This document shows positions 14,088-64,000 of a stretch of 64,000 bases of DNA, piece by piece (the first letter of the stretch is position 1; the number at the start of each line of letters is the position of its first letter). The stretch comes from Mytilus galloprovincialis (taxonomy: Eukaryota), in assembly GCF_965363235.1 (NCBI RefSeq), contig NC_134847.1:63916144-63980143 (forward strand), written 5' to 3'. The notes below the pieces were generated by a model that saw only the letters and a list, made by a program, of their open reading frames with translations, did no database searches and was not told where the DNA came from. A program made the position numbers and the translations under genes.

Positions 14088-14125
14088 TCCCCCCCCCCCC
14101 CCCAAAAAAAAAAAAAACAACCAAA
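14088..14125. repeat. (C)15(A)14 homopolymer pair. Similar C-run/A-run pairs recur at 41365..41403 and 16965..16982.
   Basis: Sequence: CCCTCCCCCCCCCCCCCCCAAAAAAAAAAAAAACAACCAAAAAAAC. Confidence 0.6.
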
Positions 14126-18325: not shown

Positions 18326-18468
18326 CTGTGCTTATGATCTCCGAGTATAAATGTCAGCATGTATGACGTCATGGGATCCAAAAAAGGAGGAATTATTAAC
18401 AGAGCCAGCATACGTTTCTGAAAACGACCAAACCCTCCGATCTCCATTAGCAGCTTGTCGTAATTCAT
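18326..18468 (-). CDS. SLC22-family (OCT-like MFS) transporter, coding exon 1; ATG at 18468..18466
   Basis: The minus-strand translation is MNYDKLLMEIGGFGRFQKRMLALLIIPPFLDPMTSYMLTFILGDHKH. The conserved GRFQKR motif, TM1 and the D-H-(K/R)-C element of SLC22 N-termini are all present. The donor is CACAG|GTAAGT at 18326. It carries 2 nt (AG) that complete codon R together with exon 2. Confidence 0.8.
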
Positions 18469-18590
18469 ATTGGTCCTGACAAAAAAGTCATATTTCATTA
18501 AATAGACAAAAAATTGGCAAAATATTCAATTTGCAATAAGAAAAATTGCTATAGATTCCATAGGCGGCCTTTTACGTTTTTTCCATAAAG

Positions 18591-18795: not shown

Positions 18796-19680
18796 GTGTG
18801 TCTGTATGTCCGGCGTCCACATGTTGCACCATAACTCGAGAACCGCTTATCCACATTTCATGAAACTTCATCTAGTTGTTTCTTATGATTGTCAAACGAT
18901 CTGTATACTTTTTGGTGAAAATAGGATTTAAATTTCTTGAGTTACGAGACTTTATAACTAAAACAGAGGTGTGTATTTTTCACATGTCGCGCTGTATCTC
19001 AAAAACGATTTCTGATTTTTGCTTTAAACTTCACACACTTCTTAATTATAATAATCCAAAGATCTGTATATTTTTGTTGATGATTCAAAATTTTGTTTTG
19101 GAGTTAATAATGAGTTCTTTGTAAAAAAAGAGGAGAGGGTTCACATGTTGTATCGTATTTTAAAAACCATTAATGACTATTGCCTAAAACTTAACACACT
19201 TCGTAGTTATATTAATCTTTAGATCTTGATCTTAATATTTTTTAGTGATGATTCAAAATTTTATTTTAGAGTTATTGAGATTTTTGTAAAAAAAAAAGGG
19301 GGGGGGTCACATGTCGCACCATATCTCATAAACGATTTATGATTATTGCTTAAAACTTTACACACTTCTTAGTTATATTAATCTAAAGATCTGTATATTT
19401 TTGTTGATAATTCAAAATTTTGTTTTGGAGTTAATGAGTTTTTTTGTAAAAAAGAGGAGAGGGTTCACATGTTGCATCGTATTTTAAAAACGATTAATGA
19501 CTATTGCCTAAAACTTAACACACTTCGTAGTTATATTAATCTTTAGATCTTGATCTTAATATTTTTTAGTGATGATTCGAAATTTTATTTTAGAGTTATT
19601 GAGTTTTTTGTAAAAAATTGCGCCGTATCTCAGAAAATATTTATGATTATTGCATAAAATTTCTCACACAAGACAAATGG
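18795..19680. repeat. Tandem satellite array of about 5 units of 170 to 180 bp, with a two-variant (about 350 bp) higher-order structure, 0.3 to 1.2 kb upstream of SLC22-like exon 1
   Basis: The alternating unit types are ...TTTGCTTTAAACTTCACACACTTCTTAATTATAATAATCCAAAGATCTGTATATTTTTGTTGATGATTCAAAATTTTGTTTTGGAGTTAAT...GAGGAGAGGGTTCACATGTTG... and ...ATTAATGACTATTGCCTAAAACTTAACACACTTCGTAGTTATATTAATCTTTAGATCTTGATCTTAATATTTTTTAGTGATGATTC(A/G)AAATTTTATTTTAGAGTTATTGAG.... Each is present at least twice, nearly identically. Confidence 0.75.
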
Positions 19681-24092: not shown

Positions 24093-27000
24093 CCCCAGTC
24101 CCACTAGACCACGATCGCACTACGATCTGTGAAAAAAATGCAAATTTTGATGATCGTGGTACGATCGTGTAGGTCGCAGTAAGGTCGTACCACGGTCGTG
24201 GCGAGGTCTTCAAGATCGTGCAGAGCGTGGCCAATTTTGAACATGTTCAAAACAATCGTGGTGCGGTCGCGGCGAAATTAGGTCGTAGTAGAAGCGTAGT
24301 GAGAGCGCACTAAGATCGTAGTAAGATCGCAAAGGTCGCTGTACAATCGTAGCGAGAGCGTAGCGAAAGCGTGATTCTATTCGGAGAGATTGCGCAACGA
24401 TCTCACAGCGACGTTATCACGACCTTACTACGACCATCACGTTCTCACCGCGACCCAACTACGCTTCCACTACGACATTACCACGCTGTTCACGACCATA
24501 GTACGATTCTAGCACGCCCTTGCCGTCCTCATCACGCTCTTCTCGCGACCTTACTACGTCTAGAGACATATAATAATAATGTATTATATGTCTCTGCTAC
24601 GTCCACACGACGACCATCATTTTTATTGTCATTTTCACATAAAATATATAAAAAAAAACTGCCTAGATTTTGTTTGTCTGAATGTATTTATCCATTTGCT
24701 CTAACGGCTCAACCATGCTTCTCGTTTTTATATAGATTAGACCGTTGGTTTTTCCCGTTTAAATGGTTTAACATTTTTTTTTATGGGCCCTTTATAGCGT
24801 GCTGTTCGGTGTGAGCCAAGGCTCCGTATTGAAGGCCGTACCTTGGCCTAAAATGGTTTATTTTTATAGATTTTTACGTTGATGGAGAGTTGTCTCATTG
24901 GCACTCATACCACATCGTCCTATATATGTTACAGTGAATTTGAATAATCAGTGATTATGTAGAATCACTGGCTACTTTAGGGATTATATATAATCACTAA
25001 AATTTTCAGGGATTATGTATAATCACTAGAAAAAACGTCAGTGATTATACATAATAACTGAAATGAAGAAATAGTTTTATTTATAAAGAAAATGAATAAA
25101 AGTCAAATAATTTATTCTATAAAATCATAATGAAACATCAATATAAACATAAATTGTAAAATGTTAAACACAATATATTAAAATAATAATTCGTCCTCAG
25201 TCAATATCATTCTTTCAGGTTAATATATGTTTGTACCAACCTCATACAAAGGCTATAATTGTATAATATTAGACACAATACATTGAAATGTTAAGCATAA
25301 GGTTAAACAGTCATTTATTTTTTACAAATTAAATTTGGATGGCATTGACCATTGCATATTTGCCCTGATTTTTAATAGGCATGTTTATTTGCTTCACATC
25401 TATTTTACCACAATATCCAAATTTTAAAAAAATAGTTTCCTTCACAAATCAGATTTACGACACGCCTAAGAGAAATAAAGTTTTCAGTAAAAACATCTGA
25501 AGGTACCCCCCCAAAAAAAAATAAAAATAAAAAATAAATAAAAATTAAAGGGTTTCAGTAACCTCGAACAGGTTCGAGCAATATACCATGTTTTGGGGTT
25601 TCACTTTCTTTTTTTTTTACCCTGTGGAATTGCTATGAGAATATTACACTAAATGTCAGCATCCTCTACAATTTTGTTCTATTTGTCAATCCTTAGTTCT
25701 GCCTGTTTTCTATACACTTAGATGCGTAAGTTCTCTCAGTTTGAATTTCTTGTTCATTTGAACAAAAAAACACAACACAAAACATTTGTTCCATAATCAT
25801 CTTCATCATTTGTTTTACCACAAATAACATGCTGTGTGGATTTACAAATAGAACATGAATATCGATTTGACGTTGGATTTTGATAAACAAACAATACATG
25901 TAAAGTTATCGCTATAAAGGAAATGTTGATATTATTATTTTGAAGCCTTCAACTTTATCTCAAAACCCCGTGTTGTTTAAATCTTTAAGATCACTCTGTG
26001 TTAAAAAGGAGAATAATCTCATCTTGAAAGGAATATGAAAGGAAAAAAGGATAATTTGTCTATATTTAAAAAAAAATAGCAAACAAAGTATCCTTAAATT
26101 TTTGATAATCCCTGAAATATTAGGGAATTTGTAGAATAATCATTAAAATGTTCAGTGATTTTGTAAAATCACTGGCCATTTTCAGGGATTATATATAATT
26201 ACTAATGATTTCAGTGATTCTACATATTCCCTGAAAAATCAGGGATTCTACATAATCCCTGACTATACAAATTCACTGTAACATATATATTGACACATCT
26301 GTGTCATCTCTGCTATCGTTGACTAAACTATCGTCATTTGAGCTTTATGGACCAGCAATATGTTGTAAATTAGGTTTGATTGGTCGTTCCGACATCTCTT
26401 GATGACAAGTATTATACTACTTATGTGTATAGTATCAGTTTAATTGAAGTCTGGAGCATGTCAGTTAACTGATAGTAGTCTGTTGTTATTTATGTATTAT
26501 TGTCATTTTGTTTATTTTCTTTAGTCACATCTTCTGACATCAGACTCGGACTTCTCTTGAACTGAAGTTTAATGTGCGTATTGTTATGCGTTCACTTTTC
26601 TTTTCTTCATTGACTAGAGGTATAGGGGAGGGTTGATATCCCACAAACATGTTTAACCCCACTATTTTTGCGCCTGTCCCAAGTCAGGAGCCTCCGGCCT
26701 TTGTTAGTCTTGTACTATTTTTAATTTTAGTTTCTTGTGTACTATTTGGAGTTTAGTATGGCGTTCATACTTTGCTCCCTCTGCCTCTACATCAACCCCT
26801 ACCAACACGCCCACGTGTTCTAGTAGATTTTGGTAGCATGACTGTATTGTATCCGAGAAATCTCCGTTTTAATCAGAAATAGAAGGAATGGAACTATATT
26901 GATATGAAACACGATGTTGACGGTATTGCTGAGAACGTAGTAAGATCGCGGTATGAACGTAGTATAATCGTGGTAAGAACGTGCTATAATCGCAGTAAGA

Positions 27001-27285: not shown

Positions 27286-27800
27286 CACCAGCTACGAGAT
27301 ATATAATAAATCAAAAGTATGATTTTTTTGTGTTCAATCATTAATGAAAGTGAAAAAGTGAAATAATAATTTGCTTTTATCAGCTAAAATGGTTCAATTT
27401 TGTCAAATTAAGCTTATAAACATTAATAATGTATTATTCACTTGCAAGTGAATAACTTGACCTCATAAAATCCATATTCATTTGAACTTCAATTTAACCC
27501 CGTAGAAAGTGATAGAATAACGCATGCATTGTCCGTGTACGGGTATTTAAAGGAAAGAAATGTCAACATTGAAAGTGAAACAAAGGTAAATAATTTGATT
27601 AACTGATTCGATCCACACAAAATCATTCTTATAAAGGTAAACGACGATAAAAATAAATTTTTAATCTATAATACAAAATTTAACAGACCTATAAAAATCC
27701 AATTGCACTAGTTGCCTAATCTATTTATATCTGTGTTTATGTTTACATCGCTTATATGGTCATAGAAGGTCAACTCGACAGTTAATTAGATGGCGTCTTG
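27286..27800 (+). repeat. Segmental repeat X (direct). An inverted partner lies at 34600..35235 and a third partial direct copy at 33060..33370.
   Basis: It begins AAGGGGCACCAGCTACGAGATATATAATAAATCAAAAGTATGA... and is the reverse complement of 35000..35235, which ends ...TATATATCTCGTAGCTAATGCCCC. An internal block at 27640..27800 recurs directly at 33150..33370 and inverted at 34660..34870. Confidence 0.55.
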
Positions 27801-28289
27801 GCTAAATTTCACACGAAACGAAGCAACATTGTATTGAGACCATGTCCTGTAAATAGTTTATTTGATATTTTTGATAGTATGGAAAAATGTAAATAAAATA
27901 TGAGAATTTGAGTCAAATCGGTGATCATGAATTTGGCAGCTATTGCTCCATTAAGAATAGACAATAACACACTATAACAATAAATGCCCATGCGTTTTTC
28001 TTATGGTGGCCTGTGTCACGATTATTTTTTTATAAATAAACCTATCTATGATATCAAATGTTTGGATACAGTAATACCACAAGTAAAGAGATTAAAAGAA
28101 TTATTTTTTTGCGAACATATGTTCAACATTATTTTTTACCACCACAATGTTTAGTCTCTGATGAATGGTTAGCAATTGTACAGCATAAATAAAGGCAACA
28201 GTAGTGTACCACTGTTCAAATCTCATAAATCGATAGAAACTTTTTATATTATAATTGGAACAAAGTTTTTATAGTATTAATTTTTTAAC

Positions 28290-29174: not shown

Positions 29175-29560
29175 TAAATCTCAGTATTCCTCAATGCTCT
29201 TCAACATCGTACTTCATTTGGACTTTTTTTTAAAACTTTATTTGATGCCTTTTGTAGACGAAACGCGCGTCTGGCGCAAATACAAAAAAAAAAGGTAAAA
29301 TCACAAAAAATACTGAACTCAACGGGATAATTCAAAACCTAAAGTCCCTAATTAAATGGCAAAATCAAATGACAAAACAAATCAAATCAAACGAATGGAG
29401 ACAACAGCTGTCATATTCCTGACTTGGCACAGGCATTTTTGAATGTAGAAAATGGTGAATTGAACCTGGTTTTATAGCGCTAAACCTCTCACTTGTATGA
29501 CAGTCGCATCAAAATTTCAATCCTGGTATCTATGATGAGTTTATTTTACAGACGGGTCAT
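29175..29560 (+). mobile_element. SINE-like interspersed repeat family B, near full-length copy (about 390 bp)
   Basis: It contains AATGCTCTTCAACATCGTACTTCATTTGG...GTAGACGAAACGCGCGTCTGGCGCAAATAC, then an A-run, then GGTAAAATCACAAAAAATACTGAACTC...CAAACGAATGGAGACAACAGCTGTCATATTCCTGACTTGGCACAGGC...GAACCTGGTTTTATAGCGCTAAACCTCTCACTTGTATGACAGTCGCATC...TCAATCCTGGTATCTATGATGAGTTT. Confidence 0.7.
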
Positions 29561-29869: not shown

Positions 29870-30115
29870 GCACGACTTTAATGCAACTTCCTCAAGCAAT
29901 TGCGATGTAAAAAGTAAAATCACAAAAATTTTCAACTCCGAGGAAAATTCAAAAAGGAAAGTCCCTAATCAAACGGCAAAATTAAAAGCTCAATCACATC
30001 AAACGAATGGATAACAACTGTCATATTCCTGACTTGGTAGAGGCATTGACTTATGTACAAATGGTGGATTAAACCTTGTTTTAAAGCTAGCTAAACCTCT
30101 CACTTGTATGACAGT
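29870..30115 (+). mobile_element. Family B repeat, 3' two-thirds
   Basis: Collinear with 29300..29560. A 5' portion of another copy (GATTCAAGCATCACCGGTGAGTCGTTTG) follows at about 30240..30340. Confidence 0.65.
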
Positions 30116-30769
30116 TAAAGCTTTTCTGTTTATTACCTATTTATACTTTGTAACAATGAACATATTCTTTTGCATCATATTTGTGGGTTTACTAGGAATA
30201 AAACTAGGGAAATATAGTAAATCTGTCATCTGTCACTATATATTTTGGTTTACCCTTTCGGAATTTTGGTCGTCACTGCTCTTTAACTTCGCACTTTATT
30301 TGGTATTTGACTTCTTCTCTGATTCAAGCATCACCGGTGAGTCGTTTGATGAAGATAAAATGATAAAATTACACTATGAGGACGAAAAAGTTGAATTTCA
30401 TAATTTTTCTTCTGCTTTTTTCATTTCACTTTATTGTGTTTTTTTAATTCAGCATTTATTAAAAAAAAATTCTCATAGATAAAAGAAAAATATGAAATAA
30501 TTATAGATGAAAATCAAGTTTAATGAAAACTAGAATACGCGACTTCGTTAAGTTATGATTTTAGATTAAACATGTGCTCTGACTGACTTTATGTATATAT
30601 TGCCCTCAATCAAATAAAATTGATTTAATCATAAATTTTGTAGCATAAAGTTCATTGTTATGAAATCGAGGGTTTGGTTCGTTTCTATTCATTTGAGTTT
30701 GATTTTGTTGACCGTTTAATATCCAACAATCTTATTAGACAGGAAGTTACACATTTTCTCTTGGTCAAT

Positions 30770-32790: not shown

Positions 32791-34599
32791 AAAGTTAACG
32801 TTGCAAAAACTTTTTTTCTTCAAAATTACAATTTTTCTTACTGTGTTTGCATATTTTCTTAGTTTTTTAACACAGTTTTCAAATGTAACCTTTGCTTATT
32901 TTAGTAACTGGAATTTGCAATGAAACGTTTTTAAAATTTGTCTAAATGACAGCTTGTTGTTGGGTTTTTTTTTAAGTGTTATGATGCAAAGCAAGCAAAA
33001 TGACATTCCAAATATGCATTTGATAAGACGCATTTATAAATATTATGCAATTTAATGATTTTAACTATGAAAACTCGATGGAACCGGTTAAGGTGAATTT
33101 TAAACACATTAATACATTATTAATCTTGTTATGCAATCTTTTTTTAACTATCTTATACAGATAAAAACGACGATAAACATATATTTTTAATCTATAATAT
33201 GAAATTAAACAGACCATAAAAAATCTAATTGCACGAGTTGCTTAATCTATTTAAATCTATATCTTTGTTGATATTGCTTGTATGGTCATCTGAAGTGTTC
33301 GGGGTTGAACTCGACTAGATGGCATCTAGACTAAAATACACACGAAACGAAGCTACATATTATCAAACTCAAGACCTGTAAACTGTTTATTATTCAATAG
33401 TTTGGATAAATGTTTAACATTGTTTCATTGCCAGCAAACATTTGTTCATTATTAAATCTATTGCTATTTCAATTCAACGGTTGTTGATGTTTTTGTCACT
33501 TGGTTCAAGCCGTCACCTGTTCAAATCTAAATCCTTCAAAACTGCCTTTACAATTAACATAAATTTTCATGGGAGTTTAGTATTTTTGTGATTTTACTTT
33601 CTATTACTAATGCTTTAATTATGGAAGAAATATGATAAAGTTCGAAATGTATGTAACTAAAAGTAACGTGCTTTCGCCATTACCATGATACGAAAATTCT
33701 GAACATACACATATCTTTAATATCAGGTTATTGGATACGGTATATTACCACAGGTAAAGAGATTGCATTTGGTCTCTAGTGGATAGTTGGCAATCAAACC
33801 GCATATACCTTTTTTAATATCATAATAAACCTAATTCGCATGCATCTAAACTAGTAAGCCATTATGAATGCACGGTCTATATTTTAATTCGGCTTAAAAT
33901 GCATGATAATCCGTTTATTTCGCCAATATTTGCAACAAAACATGCTATCATTGCAGAATAAGTGTTATTGAGAACTAGTGGTAAGAGTATACAACATACG
34001 AATAATATGGTATAACTACTAATATGACAACTATCAACCTGAGACCACATGACTTAGGTTAAGCAATTTTTGGCCGTCGCGATTATGTCTGACAGATTCT
34101 GTAGGTCACATAACCTTATATAAACATAAATACACACGAAGCACGTGCAATAGTTTAATTGCCATTTTTCTAGGTCAGTTTGATTTCATGTCTTATATTA
34201 AAAACGTGTTAATCATCGTGATTTGTGAGCATGGCAAAATCAGTGAATGACAGACAATTACCGGGTGTCTGCTTTTTCACTTTCAATATTGACATTCTTT
34301 TTTTATTGATAACTAAACATGCTTTCACCATGAATAACCATTATCAATTATTGCGAAATATTATTTCACGACTCTGCTTTTATATGGGCTTGAAACAAAT
34401 AACCATATTTTTGTGCATGTTTTTTTTGTCCAACTTCGTAGCTAATGTCCCTTTCATCATCTGCAAATAAAAAAAATTCTGAAGAAGTTCTTAACAACAT
34501 ATTTCACTTCTGTTACACATTCAATCATGAATTTGTTAAAGTGATACTAGCTGTCAAATTCATGTTCACCGATTCTAATCAAATTCTCATATTTGATTT

Positions 34600-36452: not shown

Positions 36453-36454
36453 AT

Positions 36455-36740
36455 TTGTTTGACATGGCCTCCCCTCGTTTCTATTGGAGTTATCAAGACC
36501 AAATATGGACCATCGGTAGACCTCATCATGAAGTATTACCAGATGAGGCTGTGTAGGATTTCATCATCCCCTTTAGAAGTTATCTCCCTTTTATTGTTTT
36601 TTTTCGACATGGCCCCCCCTCATTGTTTTTAAAGATATTATGACCTTATTTGGACAAAAGTTAGATCTCATCATGATGTGTTACCATATGAGGCTGCTAA
36701 GGATTTCATCATTCTCTATGAGAGTTACGTCCCCTTGAAG
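36455..36740. repeat. Two diverged tandem copies of a unit of about 145 bp
   Basis: CATGGCCTCCCCTCGTTTCTATTGGAGTTATCAAGACCAAATATGGACCATCGGTAGACCTCATCATGAAGTATTACCAGATGAGGCTGTGTAGGATTTCATCATCCCC is followed by CATGGCCCCCCCTCATTGTTTTTAAAGATATTATGACCTTATTTGGACAAAAGTTAGATCTCATCATGATGTGTTACCATATGAGGCTGCTAAGGATTTCATCATTCTC. Confidence 0.6.
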
Positions 36741-37859: not shown

Positions 37860-38340
37860 TAAAAATGAAAAATTTAAACCCCCTTTTCATCCCAGGGGGA
37901 CGGGTGGGGTCATTTAGTACAAACATTCAAATTCCTCAGATAGTAAGGTTGTCGCATATCAAATGAAAGAACATAAAGCGTACATTTCAAATTTCAAATT
38001 GACGTCTCCCAAAAATGGGTTGGATGGGGTTATTGAGTGCAAAAAATAAATTTTCTTTTAAGATAGGGTTGTTGTATATCAAATGAAAGGTCATGATGTG
38101 AAAATTTGAAATATCAAATTCCCGACCTCCAAAAATTAGTTGGATAGGGTTATTAAGTGCAAAAATTAAACTTTCTAGAACATGGCTTGTCGCATATCAA
38201 ATGAAAGCTCATCTTCTCTATGTTACATATATCATAATTCCGATCTCAAAAATGTAAGCGAAAAGTTTCAGACGGTATGCTTGTCGTATATCAAACGAAA
38301 GGTCGTACAAAGTACATTACGAAAACATCACTTTTACAGG
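37860..38340. repeat. Tandem repeat of about 4 units of about 118 bp
   Basis: The recurring unit is ...GTTGTCGCATATCAAATGAAAG..CAT.A..GTGAAAATTTCAAAT.TCAAATT..CGACCTCCAAAAATGGGTTGGATGGGGTTATTGAGTGCAAAAAATAAA.TTTCT.... Copies start near 37945, 38063, 38183 and 38280. Confidence 0.65.
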
Positions 38341-41300: not shown

Positions 41301-41525
41301 AGATTGAGATATAACTTAAAAACAGATGTACAAATTAATGTTTAATATGCCTACCAAAATAATCCCCCCCCCCCCCCCCCCAAAAAAAAAAAAAAAAAAA
41401 AAAAGAAAAGAAAACACAACAAAAAACAAAAAACAAAAAAAAAACAAAACAAAAATACAATCGCACACAGGCTGAGACATAACTCGAAAATGTTTGTTTT
41501 GTTATTTAGTTCATCCACACAAATG

Positions 41526-41725
41526 AGGGAGGGGGGAGGACCGGGATCGGAACTCCGGGATCGGGTATTTTTAAACACGGGATTTCGGGATTAATCTTTT
41601 CGGGATCCGGGAATTCTATTTTCGAATTTCGGGATGGCGGGATTTATTTTAAATTTCGGGACCTCTGGATTTCATTTTTTAAAGTCCGCGATTTCGGGAT
41701 CAGGACCCCTCCTATTTTTTTAGAA
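41526..41725 (+). repeat. Second copy of the CGGGAT-subrepeat element, preceded by a (C)17(A)22 tract
   Basis: After GGGAGGGGGGAGGACCGGGATCGGAACTCCGGGATCGGGTATTTTTAAACACGGGATTTCGGGATTAATCTTTTCGGGATCCGGGAATTCTATTTTCGAATTTCGGGATGGCGGGATTTATTT comes ...GGACCCCTCC. A C17 A22 homopolymer pair lies at 41365..41403. Confidence 0.55.
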
Positions 41726-43669
41726 GGTATATAGTAGTAGTATGATATAGAGATGATCGATATAATCTCGTTCTCGACCTTCAAGTTTTATGGGTGAAAT
41801 AGAATTGAGAACAGTTCTATTCTATATTTGAGATGCTACTTTCAGGGTACATTTTTATTTTTTATTCGGTTAATTTTTACCCATATATATATATAGAACA
41901 ATTTCCTTTGAGGAGACAACCATACGAATCAATACTAGTAAGAAAATTCTTTTAAGGATCCACTGAATGTTCTTTTATTAGGATAATATTCCATGTATAA
42001 CTCTTTAAACCATAAACTATTTATACATGTATCTATTAAAAAGATTTGTGTTCTATTTTTAACATCGAAACTTTCAACAAAATTGCGGACGTGAAAGAAA
42101 ACACCATAACAAAAAAAACCGTCAGAATACAAAATGTAGCGATGGATTAATGATCGTGAAACATCATTTTCGTTTATTTTTCATTTGTTATAGTCTAAAA
42201 ACTGTTGTATGAATATTAAATTATTGTTCCAACCGTAAAGAAGGTTACAAATTTAAATGTATTATAGTTTAGTGTCATCTATATGACTGACTGACAGCAG
42301 CGGAGAATTTATGACCAGTATTAATTTATGTGGTTCATTTCCTTCTCTACTTTGAAAATATTTTTAATTGTTCCGAATGGTGTGATAGTTTTCAAAATAG
42401 GGGATATCTAGTCTTACCGTACAAGACTAAGTTTAGTATTAATGTCCCAAACTTGCACCCCCTTCTGCTTATTTCCTGCTACACGATGTCTTTTCCCAGT
42501 GAATATAGGGTTTTTGTATGGATAGTTTTGACATACTACAAGTAGAATACAGGGGCCAATCCAGGATTTTGCAAAGGGGGGCGAAGTTTTTGGGACCTTT
42601 TTTTGGTTAAAAAACATAAAATAAGTGTAAAATGCACTTTTTAAACGGTTCTAGACGTGGGGCATGTATATTTTATAGTTGCTGTTAAGTGTAAGAGTTG
42701 GACATTTTTGATGTTGTATTCTCCCCATAAATTGTCTATCATAAAATTATAGTATGGGTCAAAAGCTATGAACTGATATATTTGATGTGGGACTTGTCAG
42801 TAAAAAATAGACATGGAAAATTCTCGCTTGTTGTATGTTACGTTAGCATAAACTCACAGATTTCTTGTTGTAAACAAGATACACGCCGCGCTATTCGATG
42901 AATTTTACAATACGAGCGACACGAGTTAAAAAAGACAAACAAGCAATTTTTAAACAAATGTTTGGTTAAAATGTTTTACCCAACACAATTGAAAATTAAC
43001 CAAAGGCTACGAATGAGTCTGAAATGACAACGAATTTATGAATGACGGTCGACAAATGGAGACATAAGGGCCACACCAGCAGGCAGGTTGCAGTCTGATC
43101 TTGATAAAAGTATTCAATATATCAGTTCATGCAAACCCCCGTCCCCCCAAAAAAATACGCCCGTTTTTTATTCATTATGTTCATTTAATGCTATATTATT
43201 CTGTTGGAAATTTTCGTTTCTATTAGCCAAAAAGTGGACAAGATTATTGTTTTCAATCTAAATACGGCCAGACTCTCAGATCTCAGACTGCCTCCTCAAA
43301 CAAATGGCTAGTACCTTGCACTTTAAATCTATCCAGAGCTTAATATACTGACTGGGTAATAATTATTCAGCTATGTTATTTTAAGATAGGCGCGGGCGTT
43401 TGGGGTTAAACATAATTTCGTAGGTAAATAATATTAATGTGGAACTTTTTTTCATGAGATTATAATAGAGTATAACTTTCTTTTTGGTTGAATTGTGAAA
43501 TAGAAGTCAATACGTTCTTGCTCACTCCTTTGTCGCTTGAAGGTGTTATGATTTTTCATGCTCAGAATTGCAAATGTGTTCCTGTAATTTGAATTTCAAA
43601 ATGACTGAGTGACGTTTTTTCGACGAACTGGTCAACTCAACCATACCGAATCACTCTACTGTGATGCGA

Positions 43670-43880
43670 CTGCCATATAAGTGAGAGGTTTAGCGCTATA
43701 AAACCAGGTTCCATAAATCCATCATTTTTTACATTTGAAAATGCCTGTACCAAGTCAGGAATATGACAGTTGTTGTCCATTCGTTTGATGTGTTTATCAT
43801 TTGAATTTGCCATTTGATTAGGGACTTTCCGTTTTGAATTTTCCTCGGAGTTCAGTATTTTGTAATTTTACTTTTGAAAT
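43670..43880 (-). mobile_element. Family B repeat, partial (reverse orientation)
   Basis: About 88% identical to 9590..9800. Confidence 0.65.
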
Positions 43881-48656: not shown

Positions 48657-49070
48657 GTACAAGATATAGGAAGATGTGGTATGAGTGACAATGAGACAAC
48701 TCTCCATCCAAGTCACAATTTATAAAATTAAACCATTATAGATCAAGGTACGGTCTTTAACACGGAGCCTAAGCTCACACCGAACAGCAAGTTAAACGGG
48801 AAAACCAACGGTCTAATCTATATAAAAAAAAAGAGAGAAACGAGTAACACTTATGAACCACATAAACAAATGACAACCACTGAGCATCAAATTACTGACT
48901 TAGGACAGGTGCAAATAATTGCAGCGGTATTAAACGTTAAATGGTACCAAACCTTCTACCTTTTCTAGAACAGTAGTATAACATCACAACATAGAAAGAC
49001 ACACTATAAAATATCAATTGGAACGACTTAACTCATTCAAAAAATTATATTGAATGTATAATGTAACAGC
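48657..49070 (+). mobile_element. SINE-like repeat family A, full-length copy
   Basis: Collinear with 1027..1460, with the same 5' terminus and internal blocks. Confidence 0.7.
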
Positions 49071-49849: not shown

Positions 49850-49960
49850 CATCCCTCATATATTCATATTTACCGAACTCCAAGGAAAATTCAAAACGGA
49901 AAGTTCTTCTTCGAATGGTAAAGTCAAAAGCTCAAACACATCAAATGAATGGAAAACAAC
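49850..49960 (+). mobile_element. Family B repeat, left half of a copy split by the 4.7-kb long-TIR element
   Basis: It runs CCGAACTCCAAGGAAAATTCAAAACGGAAAG...CACATCAAATGAATGGAAAACAAC and then breaks at 49960/49961. The continuation AACTGTCATATTTTTACTTGGTACAGGC resumes at 54655. Confidence 0.7.
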
Positions 49961-52900
49961 CAGGGCCGTAAGTACCATTGAGGCAAATGAGGCAAATGCA
50001 TGCCTCATGCCGGAAATTAAAAAAAAAATGAAAAAAAAAGATTGTCTTTTATCAAATTGTTTTCACAGAAAGTGTCTTGCAAGAGGCAAGCTCTATTCAC
50101 TCCCTGATGTCGCCCCTGCATTTTTTCCGTGATCCATTTTCTATTTTACTTTTGGTTTTCGGAGTTGATGGTCTATTGTTTGTACTTCTGTGTCTCGGGT
50201 TTGTATTTGTTCTTTTATTGTCCTACTTTATGACTATAGTCTGAGTGTTGATTTTCATTTGTAAACGTGTGCAATGTTAATGTTGCATGTCTGATGTCCA
50301 GATATAGTGTGGGAAAATATTTTAAGAATATGCTCTACGACAAAAATTGTTGACTTGTATCTGCATGGATAATTGAACTTGATATCAAAGAATACAAAAC
50401 TGTCTTATTTGTATATTAAACCACAGGTCTGGGCATATGATACAGATATTTTTTTTATTTTTTTGTTGTTGATTAAGATATTCAATTTTCTATATATTAA
50501 TAATACATATCTATCACTTTTGTGCGTGTCTCACCTAGTTTCGAGTGATTTAAACGACTTAGAGAACTGAAATACCCAATTTTTCTTAGTATGGATGGTA
50601 AAATTGGGTATTTTCTCGGAGTCGTTTAAATCACTCGAAACTAGCTATATATAGGTGAGACATGCACAGAAGTGATAGAAGATATGTGTTATAAATATAG
50701 AAAAATGACTATTTTAATCGACAACAAAAAATAAAAAAAAAGATATCTGTATCATGTACCCAAGCGCCTATAGCTCTCATGGTTTAAATTAAAGTAAGAC
50801 CACCAATTTCCTGGTATCAAATTATTTAAAAAAAAAACCAACAATGTATTGCTATATGACCTTTTACATTGAAGGGTTAAACTTGCATTAAGTCGTGTTC
50901 AGACAGAAAATAAAGGAATATGGAGTAACCTTGCACGGGACCTAATCGCACACAAAGTCAATGCATAGAAAAAATACTAATGATCAATGGTCAAAATTTG
51001 TATTCCTATTCTTCATCTTGATAGTTGTTGGAGGGTCTTCAATAATAAAAGATTAGAATCATTAATTCTGTAAAAGAAGGTCAAGATGGTCCCTAGTGTC
51101 GACTTGAGCAGTACTAGTACTTAAAGTATAATACTGCACTGTCGCAAATTTAAATCTTGTCATTAAAAAAAATCATCAAAGTCAGCACAATACAAGACAA
51201 GAGCAGACAGACTGAACCGGTATTAATGATTATGAGAAATACGATTTTTACTTTATCCTACATATTGGTCTTTTTATGTTGCCCCTAAAACCTAAAATGA
51301 ATCTATGTTTTTGCTTTGAGACCAGAATATTATCGAAAAAAATAGCTAAAGATGATTTGCGTTTCAATATAAGAAAGAGTCCGTGGAATGCTCAGAATGC
51401 ACGAATTTGCGATATTTTTTCACAGTTTCTGGGGGCCTTGAGCAACCCCCAGACCCTTCGCCAAAAATTTTCAGCTTGCTCCGCTCGGCGAATATATTTT
51501 GCCTCACTATTAACAGTATATGGGCGTTTTTCAATAAAACCGTATTTTCTTGTCCCAGCCACTTTAAAAAAAAATATGTTTGATCTTTGCAAGTAATTTT
51601 TTGTGCAGTCAGTACATTGAATAAGATTTAACATTTTTAAGCAAAGAAACAGTTTATTTTTAGAGGAATTAATAAGATATTGACTCCTGAATGGTCCAAA
51701 ACAACCAAAATGGCATGTCCCTAGACCGCCTGTTCAACATTCATACTCTAAAATATCGTAAAAAAATGAAGAAATAAATGTTATTTTTACTTTACATAAG
51801 TTCTTTAATAATTCAAAAGTATGTTCAGTGCCAACATATTTTAATAAACAGCTTTAAATATCGGATTTTTAATTTCAGAAGGTGTGTCCCTCACAAAATG
51901 TCCACTACGAAACGAAGTCTTTAAAATTTGCCAATAAACAGTTTTATAAAATCAATGTAATTTTTGTTTGCAAGAGATATAAACATTAGGGTCTTACAAA
52001 AGAAGTGATGCTTTTATAACGGCAATTAAATTGTTGGTAAGAAAAATTGAGCACATCAAATGGACCAGAGTGATACCGTATTTTTGTTAATGTCCACTAC
52101 GAAACGGGTCAAATCTCCTTCAGTATCTGGTTTTAAAATTATGAAAAAAATATCAGTGTACAGCTTAATAAATGCTTTGATGAATACAATCAGTCTTGTT
52201 ACTATTGCAATATAGGGATTGTGGGGGAAAAAAATAAAACATGCGAATATGTCCCCTACGAAACGGTCCCCTACGAAACAAGTATGGGAGAAAAACGTTT
52301 CGTAGTGGACACTACCACTACCATGCAGTCTTTTTTTAATCTTTTTTCAATTATATTCGTGCAAAACAAATAACAAGGGTTAGTTTCATGTAATTTTTAT
52401 TATGTTTTTATTAACATATAATAGGGTTGATGTCAACTACGAAACTTTTTGTCCACTACGAAACGGTTTTGTCCACTACGTAACGCATCAAAATGTCCAC
52501 TACGTAACATGAGTTGAACCTTCATATGTAAAGTACTGTCTAATCTTTAACGTTAAAAATGGTTTTCCAATTCAGAAAAAATGAGATTTTCTAGTATTTA
52601 AAGTAAACAAACTGGAATGTCTATAGGAAGCATTTAAAATTGCAAAAAATATGTGTGTTTAGAAGAATTTTCGTAGAGGACAAAAGTCCCCTACGAAACA
52701 GTACACAAATTATGAAAATAATATCATTTCAAAGAATATTTAAGATTGCACTTTTTGTTTACAAACAGGTCTATAATAGAAGTATTCAAAATAACTCTTG
52801 AAATTAAATTTTAGACATGTCAAGTTGATTTTCCATTTTTTTAGGTCTGAAAGTTACGCTTTTATTGAAAAACGCCCATATATGTGTCAAGACATGTAGA

Positions 52901-54654
52901 TTCCGCACCCATAATATTCCAAATATAGTCAGTTTAACTTATTATTCATAGTATTAATTAAGTGACTCGAGAAATTCACATAATAAAATAACTCAAGCAG
53001 TTGCTGTTCAACCCATATGCAAATGATATCAAGAACCATGGACAATATGATTGATATGACGGATAGTAATGCCTCGCATACTGCGACGAAAAGGCGTGAC
53101 AAAAAAAAACGACAAAAAAATAGAAAAAGGTTGCCGAAATATTGAAGCTATAGAGTATATAAAGAACTTATAGAATAATCATATTCAAATCATATGCAAA
53201 ATAAATAAAGAATGGAGAAAAATTGTTAAAACAGGGCCGTAACTAGCCCCTTTTAATACTGAGGCAAAATATGTTTGCCGAGCGTAGCGAGGCGAATTTT
53301 TTTTTGGCGAGGGGCTTGGGGCCGCTTTTAAAGGCCCCCAGAAGCTCTGAGAAAAATAACGCAAAATCGTGCATTCTGAGCGTTTCCCGGACTCTTTCTT
53401 ACATAGAAACGCAAATAATTTTTAGCTATTTTTTCGACAAATCATAATTCTGGTCTCAAAGCAAAAACATAGATTCATTGTTATTTAAGACTTTTAGGGA
53501 AATTCAAAACATTAAAAGAGCGATATGTAGGATAAAGCAAAAATCGTAATTCTTATGATCATTAATACCGGATCTGTCTGTCTGTTCTTGTCTTGTATTG
53601 TGCTAACTTGAGATTTTTTATGACTAGATTTAAATATAGTGACAGTCATTAGTGCAGTAATATACGTTAAATACTAGTACTGCTCAAGGCGACACTAGGG
53701 ACCATATTGACCTTGTTTTACGGTATTTATGATTCTTTCATAATGGAAGACCCTCCAGCAACTATCAAGATGAAGAACAGGAATAAAAACTTTGACCATT
53801 GATCATTTGTATTTTTTTCTATACATTGACATTGTGTGCGATTAGCTCCCGTGCACGTGTACTTCATATTCCTTTATTTTCTGTTAAAGGGTCTAAACAA
53901 GAATTAATGCAAATTTAACCCTTGAATGTAAAAGGTCATATGGCAATACATTGATGTTTTTTTCAACAAATGATTTGATACCGGGAAATTGGTGGTCTTA
54001 CTTTAATTTAAACCATGTCAGCTATCTAGTTTTATCCACAGGTGCTTGGGTATATGATACAGTTTTTGTTGTTGTTTTGTTTGGTTATGATATTCAATTT
54101 TCTATATTTATAATACATATCTATCACTTCTGTGCATATCTCACCTACAGAAAATACCTAATTTTGCAATCCATCCTGAGAAAAATTGGGTATGGTTTTA
54201 TATACAAGAAAATCAGTTTCGCAGAAACGACCACTTTTTTCTGTGTCCAGTAGCATCGTATATTCTTAAAATATTTTCTCGCATAATGCCTGGACATCGG
54301 TGGACATGCAACATTACACAGTGTGACACGTTTACAAATGAAAATCAACACTCAGACTAGTCATTAAGTAGGAGAATAAATGAACAAAGACAAACCCGGG
54401 ACACAGAAGTAAAAACAATAGACCATCAACTCTGAAAACCAAAAGTAAAATAGAAACATGGATTACGAAAAATATGCAGGGGCGACATCAGAGAGTGAAG
54501 AGAACTTGCTTCTTGCAAGACACTTTCAGTGAAAACAATTTGATGTGAAGACAATCATATGAAGAAAATCTTTTGTTTTTGTTTTAGTTTTTTTTTTTTG
54601 AAATTTAAAACATGAGGCATTTGCCTCATTTGCCTCAATGTAGTTACGGCCCTG
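49961..54654. mobile_element. 4.7-kb long-TIR palindromic non-autonomous element (termini CAGGGCCGTAAGTAC...GTAGTTACGGCCCTG) with a 5-bp TSD ACAAC
   Basis: The outer arms 49961..50385 and 54225..54654 are reverse complements. Nested inverted arms lie at 50760..51600 and 53230..54020. An internal hairpin module occupies 50400..50575 / 50585..50760 and is repeated directly at 54035..54180. The core 51600..53230 is unique. The element sits inside a family B SINE copy, with ACAAC duplicated at 49956..49960 and 54655..54659. Intact SINE copies carry a single ACAAC at the corresponding site. Confidence 0.75.
51890..52710. other. Cluster of at least 9 copies of a 14-nt motif GTCCACTACGAAAC (variants GTCCCCTACGAAAC, GTCAACTACGAAAC, GTCCACTACGTAAC) in both orientations
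   Basis: Occurrences are near 51899, 52092, 52252, 52268, 52297 (reverse complement CGTTTCGTAGTGGAC), 52430, 52449, 52471, 52496 and 52685. All lie in the unique core of the 4.7-kb long-TIR element. Confidence 0.6.
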
Positions 54655-54760
54655 ACAACTGTCATATTTTTACTTGGTACAGGCTTTTCCTCATGTAGAT
54701 TATTATGGCTTAGCTAGCTAAACCTCTAACTTGTATGACAGTCGCAAAATCTGCATTATT
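54655..54760 (+). mobile_element. Family B repeat, right half of the split copy
   Basis: Sequence: ACAACTGTCATATTTTTACTTGGTACAGGC...GCTAGCTAAACCTCTAACTTGTATGACAGTCGCAAAATC. Confidence 0.7.
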
Positions 54761-55569
54761 TTAACAGCAATGTGTGAGCAAAATAAACAGACATAATTGG
54801 TAAAATTGTCAAAATTTGGGGTACACCAGTCAACAGTGCGTTATAATATTTATCACTATAAAAACAAATAACTATATTTCAAGGGAGAAAAATAAAATGG
54901 CATATTCATTCTATAAATAAGTACCGTGATAAGCAAACTTGAAAGACAAGAATACAAAAAAAAAATGACTATAGCACAATAACAAAATGTCGGGATGTAT
55001 AAAAACTGAGCCAGACAAAAAGCATATTACCAAAACTGGACAAAACAGTAAAAGTTTTAAAAAAATATACAAAGACAATTTAAAACACTATAAAACGTAA
55101 TAAGGACGATAAAGAATATCAGTACTTGACTTCAAGATCATCATGTAATATTTGTTAAGTTAATACGGAATATTTATGAAAAAAAGGTTAAGTATCTTCT
55201 GATGATATTGTTTAAAAAAAAGGACGATACGTTCTTTGACACAACTCTAGATCATCAAATCTCTGCTTGGACACTGATGGCATTTTAGTAGCTGCAAGCT
55301 CTCAAATACCAAATAAACGACTAAATGTATATCCCATATACAGATGGATTTGGAATAGTAAGGTGGGGGGAATTAATAGTTTTAAAATAAATATTGTCTC
55401 GTTGTCATAGATTCTGATTCCCGCTAGTGTCAAATTTGAGTTATATATCAGTCTAAAAATGAGGCAGAGGAAGCATTATAAGTTATATATCATAACTACA
55501 CTGCGGTAGTTATAATATATAGGAATAGATTACCTTAGCTGTATTTGGCAAAACTTTTAGGAATTTTTG

Positions 55570-59417: not shown

Positions 59418-59700
59418 CAATTACATATGGTATGATTGCCAATGAGACAATTCTCCACAAGAGATCAAATCGACACAGAAATTAACAACTACATGTCACT
59501 GTACGGGGATAAACCAGCAAAGTCAATACCGCATAATCAGCTATAAAAGGCCCCGAAATGACAATGTAAAACAATTCAAGCGAAAAAACTAATGGCCTTA
59601 TTTTTTATCAAAAAAATAAACAAAAAACTAATATGTAACACATAAACAAACGACAACCACTGAATTACAGGCTCCTTATATCATGTTCTCAAAACTAGAT
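59418..59700 (+). mobile_element. Family A repeat, diverged partial copy
   Basis: It begins GGTATGATTGCCAATGAGACAATTCTCCAC and continues ...CAGCTATAAAAGGCCCCGAAATGACAATGTAAAACAATTCAAGCGAAAAAACTAATGGCCTTAT...CATAAACAAACGACAACCACTGA. The block order matches family A. Confidence 0.55.
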
Positions 59701-60372
59701 ATCATGTCCCATTTAGAAAAAAAACACGTGAAAAAAGAACCTAGCTATTATGTGTTGCTCTCCTAGCTACAAAATGTATCCAAAATCAAAGATGTAGAAC
59801 ATATTATATCATAATAATTTGGTAACTAATGTAATTACTGTCTCCTACATGCCTTGGACATAATTTTTTTTAATAAATAACACTCCTAATGCTCAGATTG
59901 GTTGTCATCGTGCAACACAGTTAATAACACCATATAGGAAAAACATAGAACTCTTTGTCATAAGACACTGTCAAACATCCAAACATACTATCCACACTCA
60001 TCTGTGTCCACACTTGTTAGTGTACTTAAAATAATTAAACTAAGGAGTAATTACTTATGACTTTTATAATATAAATATCAGATTCATAACTTTGCATATT
60101 GTTCGTTTACAAACTTTTTAATGGCTTTGAAACTGGAAAGTTTTCAAAACGGTTTGCAAATTTCTGAGTATATTTCGAATGGTGATTTCCAGATGCTTAT
60201 ATCTGTAATGTTGTCAAAAACCTTCTCCTCTTAAACCTCTTTATCAAAATTTAATAATGATTGTTCATTTGAAAAAGAAGAAAAAAATATACTTTCAATT
60301 TTCAATTTCAATCAAAATTTATAAAAAAAAAATTGGAAGTGTTGAAGTATAAGGACGAAATTGGGAACTTAC

Positions 60373-60606
60373 AAAGTGAAACACGGCAGTTTGTTTATCT
60401 ACCCAGCTACCAAACACTTCCAGTGAGATACCAATAAAGTTAAGTAATGTCCAAATAAATATGTAGTATTCTGTACCGTGCCAAATGAACACAAATATAA
60501 AACAGGATGCTGAACACACTAGTCTCTGTAAAGTATTTCCTTTAGAGCCTCCGAGAGGTACATATATATACCTGTAATAATGAGTTAAATAATAGTTAAG
60601 TGTATA
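60373..60606 (-). CDS. HHAT-like coding exon with the MBOAT catalytic-His region (YIYVPLGG ... FIWHG ... LNFIG)
   Basis: An open frame directly follows the tag at 60618..60616. The translation is YTLNYYLTHYYRYIYVPLGGSKGNTLQRLVCSASCFIFVFIWHGTEYYIFIWTLLNFIGISLEVFGSWVDKQTAVFHF. It is collinear with human HHAT YFDVGLHNFLIRYVYIPVGG...AFVSYWHG...LNWLGVTVE. The donor is CACTTT|GTAAGT at 60373. The acceptor is ambiguous: either tattacag|TAT at 60606 (phase 0) or cattattacag|G at 60571. Confidence 0.7.
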
Positions 60607-62029
60607 CTGTAATATCTATCAGTGGAACTCAGAAGCACAAATATATATATGTTATAATAACACTTTATTTTAGACAAAACCCAACACCCTTGATATTAAA
60701 ACTGTACTCAGTCGCCTTTTGCAGATAATTACATAATATGGGTGTTCTCAGAGTTGGAGGCCACTTACGGTGACATATAGTTACTTTCAACGTCATTTTA
60801 ACTCTGCTGGTTAGTTTTCTCAATGACTTTCGTCATGATCGTACCACATCTTATTGTATACAAATAAGAGTTCTATCCATCATAAACTAACAGTGTTGTT
60901 ACAAAACGATAGACACCATTGACGTGACATTATTGGTCGGTCGATGATTATTTCAGTGTATCCAAAGTAATGGTAGATTTATCTTCAGTGCTTCTTGTCA
61001 TTTTAAACATTACCTTATTTGAAATATTATCGGATATGACCAACTACCAAAATGTGGAGTTCTAATGCTGAGATTGATACGCTTATATTTGAAAGCAGTT
61101 AAAGTTTATGTTGACAGTATTATGCATTGCTTTAAGGTCGTGTGTGCTGTTTTTGATATATATAGCTTTGAGTCCGTCTGTTTTTGTTGGTCCGTGCATC
61201 TGTCTCATTGATTTTGCTTTGTCACATTCGTTTATTGTTTATTGCATTTTCTAGTTTTCCAGTTTTAAAATGCGTATACCCAAAATATAATTCAATGAAG
61301 AAAAAAATATGTATGAATTACCCTACCAACCTTTTGATAAAATTGTACATCCCTCTGTCAAAGCACCTACAAATACAAAATGTATTGCCTAAAATAAAGT
61401 CAAAATCTCTGGTAAAATCAAAATCAATAGATAAAAGTTGCTGCGAGAACCGAATTTTATCTAATCTATTATTATTCACTTTATAAAAAGAAGTTTTTTT
61501 TTGTTTTTTTTTTAACTTTGATATACAAATATATATGTCCTTTTACTTCTATGCTGTTTTCTGAGGTTTAATTCCTTAATGTGTGTGTCAATCATCACTA
61601 CCTCATAAAATATCCTGGAATTACTTTATTCAAATTATTATTCTTCTGTTTCAATGAATTGCAACAGGTTCTTTTTGACACCCGTTAGCGTATCTAGATA
61701 TGTAGAGTGAACAATACGAATAAGGGTAAACTCATAACTTTTTATGAAAATGGATAGAAAAAGTAATAAGGGATGATTATTTTACAATTTTTTATAACCA
61801 GTTTTTAGAAGTCTAATCAACAGAATGTAGAAAATAGTTGTCTTAAATCTTGGATAAAACAAACGATGAAGCTTCTAATATACTCTTTCACTTTCTTTTA
61901 ATTAATCAATCAATTAGTTGAAAAGTAGGTACAAAATATAAACAACATACCGATTGATACACAAACGGCTTATATTCAAGTGTTGAATTAATCTCATCCC
62001 CCAAAAATATAAAAACCTAATTTCTTACT

Positions 62030-62355
62030 TCCACATATCAGAGTATTTGTAAATATGTCCTACGTAATTAGGTCCTTCTGGTGGAACAATGCCACAAATC
62101 CTGGCCACTACAGACGGCAGACCAAATAACACCCAGTATTTTATCATAAAGAAATGGCCTTGACAATATCCAATTCCCCATAAAGTCCACTGGTCAATGT
62201 TTTCTAGAGTAGACACATTATTTTGAAATGCATTGACATATAAGAAGTGAAGAATGAATTCAATGAAAAATGTCCAGAATATCACCCTTGTTGCTTGGAA
62301 TGCTATAGATTTCAGTTCCGATGCTTTTAAAGTTTTCTTTTCGGATTCGTTCATC
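62030..62355 (-). CDS. HHAT-like (hedgehog acyltransferase-like, MBOAT family) internal coding exon
   Basis: The acceptor is tttatttttag|ATG. The track ORF 62025..62354 is offset by 1 nt from my count on the printed sequence. It encodes MNESEKKTLKASELKSIAFQATRVIFWTFFIEFILHFLYVNAFQNNVSTLENIDQWTLWGIGYCQGHFFMIKYWVLFGLPSVVARICGIVPPEGPNYVGHIYKYSDMWK. This is collinear with the human HHAT region ...DSLKASL...LGGLALAQVLFFYVKYLVLFGVPALL...RCVSTMFSFTGMWR. The donor is TGGAA|GTAAGA. Confidence 0.75.
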
Positions 62356-62520: not shown

Positions 62521-62652
62521 TATCATGAATGTAAAGGCATAATGTACGAACCATACTAGACAGATACATGTACTAACATACCTAGAAAAGTAAATACACC
62601 AACCGTCCTCAACCCCTGACTTTTATTTAGAACTGTACCAGGCTTTGCTCCA

Positions 62653-62745
62653 GTGATTGTAAGTGTTTACTGCCATACATATATTGTAACTGTTTACTGC
62701 CATACATATATTGTAATTGTTTACTGCCATACATACATTTTACGT
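62653..62745. repeat. 27-bp minisatellite, short proximal block (about 3.5 units TGTTTACTGCCATACATATATTGTAAC)
   Basis: Direct tandem copies. It is related to the large array at 63258 onward. Confidence 0.75.
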
Positions 62746-63257
62746 GACATATATTGTAAAAGAGGGACGGAAGATACCAGAGGGACAGTCAAACTCATAA
62801 ATCAAAAAAAAAAACTGACAACGCCATGGCTAAAAAAGAAAAGGACAAACAGACAAATATAGTACACATGACACAACATAGAAAAATAAAAAATAAACAA
62901 GACGAACCACACCAAAAACTAGGGGTAATCTCAGGTGATCCGGAAGGGTAAGCAGATCCTGCTCCACATGTGGCACCCGTCGTGTTGCTTATGAGATAAC
63001 AAATCCCGTAAAGAACTTATTCGATATCATTTGTGAAACGGTTATTCTATAACGGTCAACCAACTCGTGATGGCGTCCGTAAAATTTACGAAGAGATGAT
63101 TTCAACTTCACCATTTGGAACTCTTGATTTAATAGCTTCCTTGTGAGCAACAACCCTTTATCAAGAAAAGCATAATAGGATGCAAGCACAGGAATATCGT
63201 ATCAATTGGGAGATATATACACCGTATGCAGACCATGTGCTACTGGAATGTTTCTAC

Positions 63258-64000
63258 TTAGAAATTGTTTACTGCCCTACATACATTGTAATTGTTTACT
63301 GTCATGTATACATAGTAATTGTTTACTGTCATGCATACATTGTAATTGTTTACTGTCATGCATACATTGTAATTGTTTACTGTCATGTATACATTGTAAT
63401 TGTTTACTGCCCTACATACATTGTAATTGTTTACTGTCATGCATACATTGTAATTGTTTACTGTCATGTATACATAATAATTGTTTACTGTCATGCATAC
63501 ATTGTAATTGTTTACTGTCATGCATACGTTGTAATTGTTTACTGTCATACATACCTTGTAATTGTTTACTGTCATGTATACATTGTTATTGTTTAATGTC
63601 ATGCATACATTGTAATTGTTTACTGTCATGTATACATTGTAATTGTTTACTGCCCTACATACATTGTAATTGTTTACTGTCATACATACCTTGTAATTGT
63701 TTACTGTCATGTATACATTGTTATTGTTTAATGTCATGCATACATTGTAATTGTTTACTGTCATACATTCATTGTAATTCTTTACTGTCAAGTATACATT
63801 GTTATTGTTTAATGTCATACATACATTGTAATTGTTTACTGTCATGTATACATTGTTATTGTTAAATGTCGTGCATACATTGTAATTGTTTACTGTCATG
63901 TATACATTGTAATTGTTTACTGTCATGTATAAATTGTAATTGTTTACTGTCATACATGCATTGTAACTGTTTACTGTCATGTATACCTTGTTATTGTTTA
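63258..64000. repeat. 27-bp minisatellite array (unit GTCATGCATACATTGTAATTGTTTACT), at least 27 units, continuing past the window end
   Basis: The period of 27 was verified from successive GTCATG positions (63301, 63328, 63355 and so on). A period that is a multiple of 3 explains the 138, 219 and 240-aa repetitive ORFs called in several frames. Confidence 0.85.

Follow-up and report, generated by a model that had tools for sequence, protein, structure and literature searches.

The 64,000-nucleotide stretch of Mytilus galloprovincialis DNA considered here (positions 63,916,144 to 63,980,143 of contig NC_134847.1, assembly GCF_965363235.1; hereafter the window, in whose coordinates all positions are given) has a G+C content of 31.6% and carries, between a transporter gene on its left and a probable membrane-bound O-acyltransferase (MBOAT) gene on its right, a mobile element at 49961-54654 that overlaps no recognizable coding sequence. 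The element lies inside an older, short interspersed repeat, is bounded by terminal inverted repeats (TIRs) and by a 5-bp target-site duplication (TSD) with the sequence ACAAC, and consists largely of two diverged copies of a 1.4-kb unit in inverted orientation. Its features, from left to right, are as follows.

49871-49960, no strand assigned: left part of the interrupted host repeat, 82% identical to 9696-9785 and ending with the first TSD copy
49956-49960, no strand assigned: first TSD copy (ACAAC), a pentamer that is single in four intact paralogues
49961-54654, no strand assigned: whole composite non-autonomous element, 4694 bp, defined by inverted termini and a 5-bp TSD, with no coding capacity
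49961-49998, plus strand: outer left TIR, containing CAGGGCCGTAAGTA and two tandem TGAGGCAAA motifs (49979-49996)
49961-51516, minus strand: left unit, inverted relative to the right unit; roughly 20 bp are lost at its inner terminus, and the inner TGAGGCAAA is kept at 51498-51506
50421-50769, no strand assigned: palindrome of about 340 bp with a 45-bp central hairpin, within the left unit, seen as inverted pairs and by BLAST
51517-52882, no strand assigned: central segment, 1366 bp, bounded by 28-bp inverted repeats TATATGGGCGTTTTTCAATAAAACCGTA (51517-51544 and 52855-52882; 27 of 28 positions identical)
52883-53231, no strand assigned: spacer, 349 bp, separating the right unit from the central segment, with no Pfam match
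53232-54654, plus strand: right unit, complete, 1423 bp, with 14-bp TIRs of its own (CAGGGCCGTAACTA ... TAGTTACGGCCCTG) and TGAGGCAAA at 53260-53268 and 54620-54637
54617-54654, minus strand: outer right TIR, from inverted-pair search, alignment and terminus scan
54655-54659, no strand assigned: second TSD copy (ACAAC), from the sequence and the empty-site alignment
54655-54831, no strand assigned: right part of the host repeat, 72% identical to 9516-9700 and continuous with the left part after excision

The insertion boundaries follow from an empty site that can be read in the window itself. We built this site in silico by joining 49861-49960 to 54660-54840 with one ACAAC kept; the excision rebuilds an interspersed repeat of about 260 bp, and the joined sequence aligns without a break over the junction with four uninterrupted copies of about 210-270 bp, at 9506-9800 (minus strand), 29300-29520 (plus strand), 29920-30125 (plus strand) and 43650-43870 (minus strand), to which it is 73-79% identical. 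Each intact copy reads ...GGAnAACAAC/TGTCATATT... (the slash marks the junction; CAGC in one copy), with the pentamer present once and exactly at the junction. Since the bases flanking the pentamer are unlike on the two sides of the element, the duplication is exactly 5 bp long. The control is paralogous, being made of copies from the same window, and the TSD of fixed length was checked against it at one insertion. An earlier note on this DNA, made from the sequence alone, had described a nested insertion into a repeat copy with ACAAC on both sides, had pointed to intact copies at 29401 and 30011 that carry the pentamer once, and had proposed an empty-site alignment with these “family B” copies as a check: the boundaries at 49956-49960 and 54655-54659 are exact, the flanks reconstitute the repeat, and two further copies carry the single pentamer as well.

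The identity of the interrupted repeat is a separate matter. The earlier note took it for a short interspersed nuclear element (SINE). Its copies have one end in common and are of unequal length at the opposite end, a pattern that is compatible with 5′-truncated retroposons and is no proof of SINE identity; neither ARAGORN nor Rfam (at gathering thresholds) detected a tRNA-like sequence or any other RNA gene in the window, and a literature search with strings of the host-repeat sequence returned no match.

The left terminus of the element is CAGGGCCGTAAGTACCATTGAGGCAAATGAGGCAAATG, and the right terminus, written as its reverse complement, is CAGGGCCGTAACTA-CATTGAGGCAAATGAGGCAAATG; the two TIRs extend over 38 bp and are alike except for one mismatch and one 1-nt indel, so that the inverted termini claimed earlier are real and are not quite the perfect repeats they were said to be. 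Each outer end comprises about 40-50 bp in which CAGGGCCGTAAsTA is combined with two TGAGGCAAA repeats and a short GCCTCA palindrome. The 14-mer CAGGGCCGTAASTA has three sites in the 64 kb even when two mismatches are allowed (0.17 expected), and all of them are ends of the element or of one of its units, namely the outermost end on either side and, at 53232, an internal one. The shorter motif behaves alike: TGAGGCAAA has six exact copies in the 64 kb, none of them more than 45 bp away from a unit end, as would be expected of subterminal repeats bound by a transposase, a role that TGAGGCAAA may have.

The element encodes no recognizable transposase. Its longest open reading frame (ORF) has 106 amino acids, for which an exact-ORF look-up found no match; Pfam searches of the three plus-strand frames over the whole element and of the three minus-strand frames over 51401-53300 gave nothing credible; and the 1.4-kb unit, translated in six frames and searched against 5.8 billion proteins, returned zero matches. 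The proposal that the element is non-autonomous thus stands. In the literature, the terminus string was met only as unrelated primers.

Our reading of the interior differs from the earlier one, which saw a single palindromic element with long TIRs. The inverted arms themselves have about the length that was proposed (approximately 1.4 kb): they span 1556 bp on the left (49961-51516) and 1423 bp on the right (53232-54654), and a global alignment of the left arm with the reverse complement of the right has 1325 aligned columns, 85.4% identity, a Kimura two-parameter (K2P) distance of 0.16 and 28 gap events. The inner edge of the right arm, however, opens with CAGGGCCGTAACTAGC, i.e., the terminus of the outer ends, and TGAGGCAAA follows 29 bp further in. 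Because the right arm thus ends on its inner side with the same 14-bp terminus and the same subterminal motif as on its outer side, a better reading of the structure is a pair of 1.4-kb units in inverted orientation, with about 1.7 kb of other DNA enclosed between them. The right unit is complete but lacks a TSD of its own: it is flanked by TAAAA on the inner side and by ACAAC on the outer side.

The two units differ in an internal palindrome. In the left unit, 50430-50762 matches itself in inverted orientation by BLAST, and 50421-50537 matches 54036-54147 directly; the right unit carries, at 54036-54193, just one half of the palindrome plus the central 45-bp hairpin, and the difference appears as a 149-nt gap in the arm alignment. 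The interval 50421-50769 could be either a nested foldback miniature inverted-repeat transposable element or a palindromic extension. The DNA between the units is of two kinds. The central segment, with its 28-bp inverted repeats, is probably a separate nested TIR element, as judged from its sequence, although its own TSD is ambiguous (TA or ATAT); its insertion, or a later rearrangement, probably took away the inner end of the left unit. Inside it, the 14-mer GTCCMCTACGWAAC occurs 11 times, in both orientations and always within 51900-52699 (0.38 copies expected), and this array (GTCCACTACGAAAC) looks like a putative binding-site array belonging to a different TIR family. The rest of the window contains no match to the spacer (52883-53231).

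These observations suggest how the element may have moved. The transposase would come in trans from an autonomous relative at another genomic site and bind the two outermost ends; everything between them would be excised and integrated through a 5-bp staggered cut at ACAAC, and repair of the gaps would duplicate the pentamer. The mobile unit would then be a composite, i.e., the two diverged 1.4-kb units together with the approximately 1.7 kb of other DNA that they enclose. As a TSD is found only at the outermost ends, and the complete right unit lacks one, we infer that the whole 4.7 kb most likely moved in one piece from these ends. The contrast between near-perfect termini and arms that have diverged by 15% hints weakly that the arms already differed before the last move: the terminal 38 bp are better conserved than the arms, with a binomial estimate of about 0.02 calculated from the arm identity of 85.4%. 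Two points speak against mobilization as a composite. One and the same end of the unit lies outermost on both sides, whereas the two ends of hAT elements of the Ac/Ds type are not interchangeable; and the difference of about 15% between the arms could equally be the in-place divergence of long TIRs that were once identical.

In a different architecture, the element would belong to a true long-TIR family with ancestral TIRs of about 1.4 kb, the inner CAGGGCCGTAACTA being simply part of the repeat and the family members being foldback-like elements of 3-5 kb. The inverted similarity does span the full 1.4 kb, and the 28-bp inverted pair at 51517-51544 and 52855-52882 carries the symmetry further inward, which could mean a larger palindrome with a deletion of about 370 bp on the left. 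We nevertheless consider such a family unlikely, as the inner end of the right arm has a full terminus and a subterminal motif like those of a free-standing unit, the arms are 15% diverged with 28 indels, and a relative of the terminus in metagenomic DNA (see below) has end similarity over only 48 bp. Alternatively, the insertion might have been of a single 1.4-kb unit, from which a second, inverted copy then arose on the spot through aberrant transposition, template switching or gap repair, with the arms diverging afterwards. hAT elements are known to cause local rearrangements, and the better conservation of the 38-bp ends, at about 0.02, is just weakly significant and leaves room for divergence in place. 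Such a course would nonetheless require that the outer end of the new copy abut the target duplication exactly and that 1.7 kb of unrelated DNA be acquired in addition; a K2P distance of 0.16 between the arms, combined with an intact TSD (5 of 5 positions) and near-perfect termini, is easier to understand if the arms had diverged beforehand, and we regard in-place duplication as improbable. Movement of a pre-formed composite remains the reading that we prefer.

To which superfamily would the transposase belong? The earlier note held that CAGGG termini combined with a 5-bp TSD fit none of the common signatures. The TSDs of the major groups are TA for Tc1/mariner, TTAA for piggyBac and Kolobok, 3 bp for PIF/Harbinger and for CACTA, 7-8 bp for P, 9-11 bp for Mutator, 6 bp for Polinton and 8 bp for canonical hAT. 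Tc1/mariner, piggyBac/Kolobok, PIF/Harbinger, CACTA, P, Mutator and Polinton were accordingly set aside on TSD length, and the canonical 8-bp hAT groups likewise, the TSD of the element being exactly 5 bp, the defining trait of hAT5. Ginger1 and Ginger2 were also rejected: the element ends in CAGGG and has the 5-bp TSD ACAAC, whereas Ginger termini read TGTNR and the animal TSDs are 4 bp long, CCGG or CCGT for Ginger1 and within RTATAY for Ginger2 (PMC2836005).

The hAT5 group, in comparison, accounts for both diagnostic features of the element. The terminal motif of hAT elements is YARNG (PMC3014272), of which CAGGG is an instance, and CAGGG stands at both outer ends of the element and once more at the inner edge of its right unit. 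hAT families with a 5-bp TSD, the length found here at one insertion, were named hAT5 in 2007, according to the passage of PMC12730594 that cites Kapitonov and Jurka; the group occurs in invertebrates and fish and is set apart by its 5-bp TSD (PMC9004415), it is a standard RepeatMasker class (DNA/hAT-hAT5) that is applied, e.g., to Hydra among the cnidarians, and a manually curated library of bivalve transposable elements holds an autonomous hAT-hAT5 consensus from Anadara kagoshimensis (PMC10294476 supplement). The apparent misfit with known superfamilies therefore goes away. On the basis of these two short diagnostic features and the elimination of the alternatives, we consider the element, with moderate confidence, to be a non-autonomous class II (cut-and-paste) transposon of the hAT type, most likely hAT5.

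The A. kagoshimensis sequence (hAT_A.kagoshimensis_18) starts with CAGGCTTTCAACCGTACC and ends with ...GAAAGCCTG, i.e., CAGGC... / ...GCCTG. hAT transposases combine a DDE/RNase-H-like core with a dimerization domain at the C-terminus; the Pfam match of the consensus ORF to that dimerization domain is weak and falls below threshold (E 0.0014; 18.8 bits, cut-off 21.4). The 5′ subterminal region of the consensus contains, at nucleotides 84-93, the 10-mer TGAGGCAAAT, which is identical to the subterminal repeat of the element; this is a single occurrence that was spotted post hoc, and it may serve as a lead only.

Several facts count against placing the element in hAT5. CAGG and the one TGAGGCAAAT 10-mer are all that it shares with the A. 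kagoshimensis consensus; a tblastn search of the window and of all fetched loci, with the bivalve hAT5 transposase as query, gave no match, no transposase is tied to these termini, and membership in hAT is read from a 5-nt motif and the length of the TSD; moreover, the 5-bp TSD and the composite structure are each seen at a single insertion. The lack of a linked transposase would suit a transposase family that is undescribed, or one that is not known for 5-bp TSDs, with the hAT-like CAGGG arising by coincidence, and the exact terminus string is in addition absent from the searched part of the curated bivalve library (PMC10294476 supplement), while no extended similarity to the hAT5 consensus compared was found. 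The argument is a negative one only, however, and hAT5 already explains both diagnostic features, so that we give this alternative little credence. We likewise weighed a non-autonomous Transib or RAG-like (RAGL) element, from the other cut-and-paste groups of animals that have 5-bp TSDs, which would not be out of place in a mollusc, given that RAGL elements and their non-autonomous derivatives occur in oysters (PMC7204232). The termini of these elements have an invariant, functionally critical CAC, and a GC-rich target is preferred (PMC1131882, PMC7204232); the consensus is CACAATG for Transib (PMC1131882) and CACTWMCAAACKTYKBB for protostome RAGL (PMC7204232). Our element, in contrast, starts with CAG at a boundary that is set by the empty site, lies in a target (ACAAC) that is not GC-rich, and is without a heptamer/nonamer-like organization; a Transib or RAGL origin is accordingly very hard to credit, and hAT5 continues to be the assignment that we favor.

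Sequences related to the terminus exist outside the mussel. No second copy of the element is present within the 64-kb window, about 160 kb of DNA from M. edulis, M. coruscus and M. galloprovincialis contained no copy of the family, and a pattern scan with the terminus found none in viral contigs or prokaryotic genome contigs. The same kind of scan of Joint Genome Institute metagenomes returned five contigs. Two of these (L004 and L008) are bacterial chance matches with 57% G+C and were discarded; the other three (L005, L006 and L007, from Ga0126337 and Ga0099810) have about 40% G+C and are eukaryote-like, L005 and L006 representing the same locus and L007 another. Their terminus sites carry CAGGGCCGTAACTAGCATGAGGCAAACGAGGCACTTGCCTCGTCTTAA (L005 2881-2928, L006 1745-1792, L007 76-123). 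The ends on L006 and L007 form a perfect 48-bp inverted pair, and similarity ceases beyond 48 bp; kilobase-long arms are thus no trait of the family. Compared with the window, the metagenome ends are 82% identical to the outer terminus over 51-56 bp and identical to the inner terminus over 16-18 bp. The presence of the terminus in a different organism marks it as a functional module that has been conserved, rather than a chance feature of this locus.

Each metagenome contig is short, carries one end only and stops before any transposase gene. Contig L006 runs 605 bp into its element, where a GTAAGT site resembling a splice donor is found; L006 may therefore hold the 5′ end of a copy that is autonomous. 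It is also conceivable that the terminus of about 48 bp (CAGGGCCGTAACTAG..TGAGGCAAA..GCCTC), common to the mussel and to an unrelated marine eukaryote of about 40% G+C, marks a non-hAT cut-and-paste lineage with 5-bp TSDs and interchangeable ends, which would be either an undescribed superfamily or an unexpected branch. We think this very improbable; if it were true, any two inverted units could mobilize the DNA between them.

Comparison with known systems places the element among familiar kinds. Like hAT5 transposons, it is a cut-and-paste TIR element with a 5-bp TSD, a YARNG end and short subterminal repeats, although the TIR of a typical hAT element is shorter than the conserved TIR of about 40-50 bp seen here. 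Composite and macrotransposons are represented by the bacterial composites flanked by insertion sequences and by the Ac/Ds macrotransposons of maize. As in those systems, two small units bracket other DNA, the outermost ends act, and a TSD is found only on the outside; the present units differ in that they are inverted, with the same end outermost, and in that one inner end is deleted, and their movement in one piece is deduced from one insertion. Foldback and long-TIR elements, such as FB of Drosophila and Galileo of the P superfamily, have TSDs of 7-9 bp and arms built of tandem subrepeats. The element resembles them in its kilobase-long inverted arms, its lack of coding capacity and its internal palindromes, whereas its arms are unique sequence and each arm is a discrete unit with termini of its own. 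With Transib and RAG-like elements it shares the 5-bp TSD and occurrence in molluscs.

What the locus offers, then, is a clean nested insertion with an internal control, which defines the termini and the TSD of a family of non-autonomous DNA transposons in Mytilus, and which documents an apparent composite in which two inverted units mobilized the DNA between them. For the annotation of mussel repeats, it provides a seed for a family of the hAT5 type and indicates that the 4.7-kb structure is to be split into its units. Judged by its sequence, the element would join a kind that has already been described, as a well-documented but ordinary insertion, and it raises no new biological question unless its transposase proves to be non-hAT.

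The genes on either side are as follows. Eight exon-like ORFs on the minus strand at 2381-18525 form an SLC22/organic-cation-transporter gene of the major facilitator superfamily; when concatenated, the exons share 86-90% identity with the OCTN proteins of M. edulis and are much less similar to sequences from outside Mytilus. The segment 600-33240 is about 92% identical at the nucleotide level to two M. edulis loci (L009 and L010), both of which hold a tandemly duplicated copy of the transporter gene; the compared loci stop at about 33.2 kb of the window, 16 kb before the element. On the other side, about 5.7 kb from the element, lies an exon of the MBOAT family (60322-60615, minus strand; Pfam E 1e-9), with a second exon-like ORF upstream of it (62028-62354, minus strand); together they suggest an MBOAT gene that runs past the right edge of the window.

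An ORF of 290 amino acids without a Pfam match of its own (12917-13789, minus strand) lies within an intron of the transporter gene. Exact-ORF look-ups found no match to it; in a protein search, a few of its more distant relatives bear the reverse-transcriptase domain PF00078, and the ORF may be the C-terminal tail of a protein of a retrotransposon without long terminal repeats. Relatives with 98% and 94% identity are on short contigs of the ENA metagenome assembly ERZ27294030 and the Logan run SRR13891816, which means that mussel DNA is present in these datasets.

The window is also rich in other repeats. A minisatellite of about 50 units of 27 bp (62629-63992; consensus near ATTGTAATTGTTTACTGTCATGTATAC) yields long spurious ORFs in three reading frames, and further tandem arrays are found at 18980-19617 (period about 160 bp), 37897-38252 (about 120 bp) and 36454-36736 (about 145 bp). 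Dispersed repeats with 80-90% identity pair 1039-1345 with 48662-48936 (and 59565-59676), 10222-10358 with 24789-24925, 27639-27862 with 33165-33391, and 16424-16543 with 41531-41650; the family of 1039-1345 is present also in the M. galloprovincialis and M. edulis loci compared. Finally, tracts of poly-C followed by poly-A (C15-19 A14-23) occur at 14088-14165 and 41363-41448, and may be tails or junctions of some repeat family.

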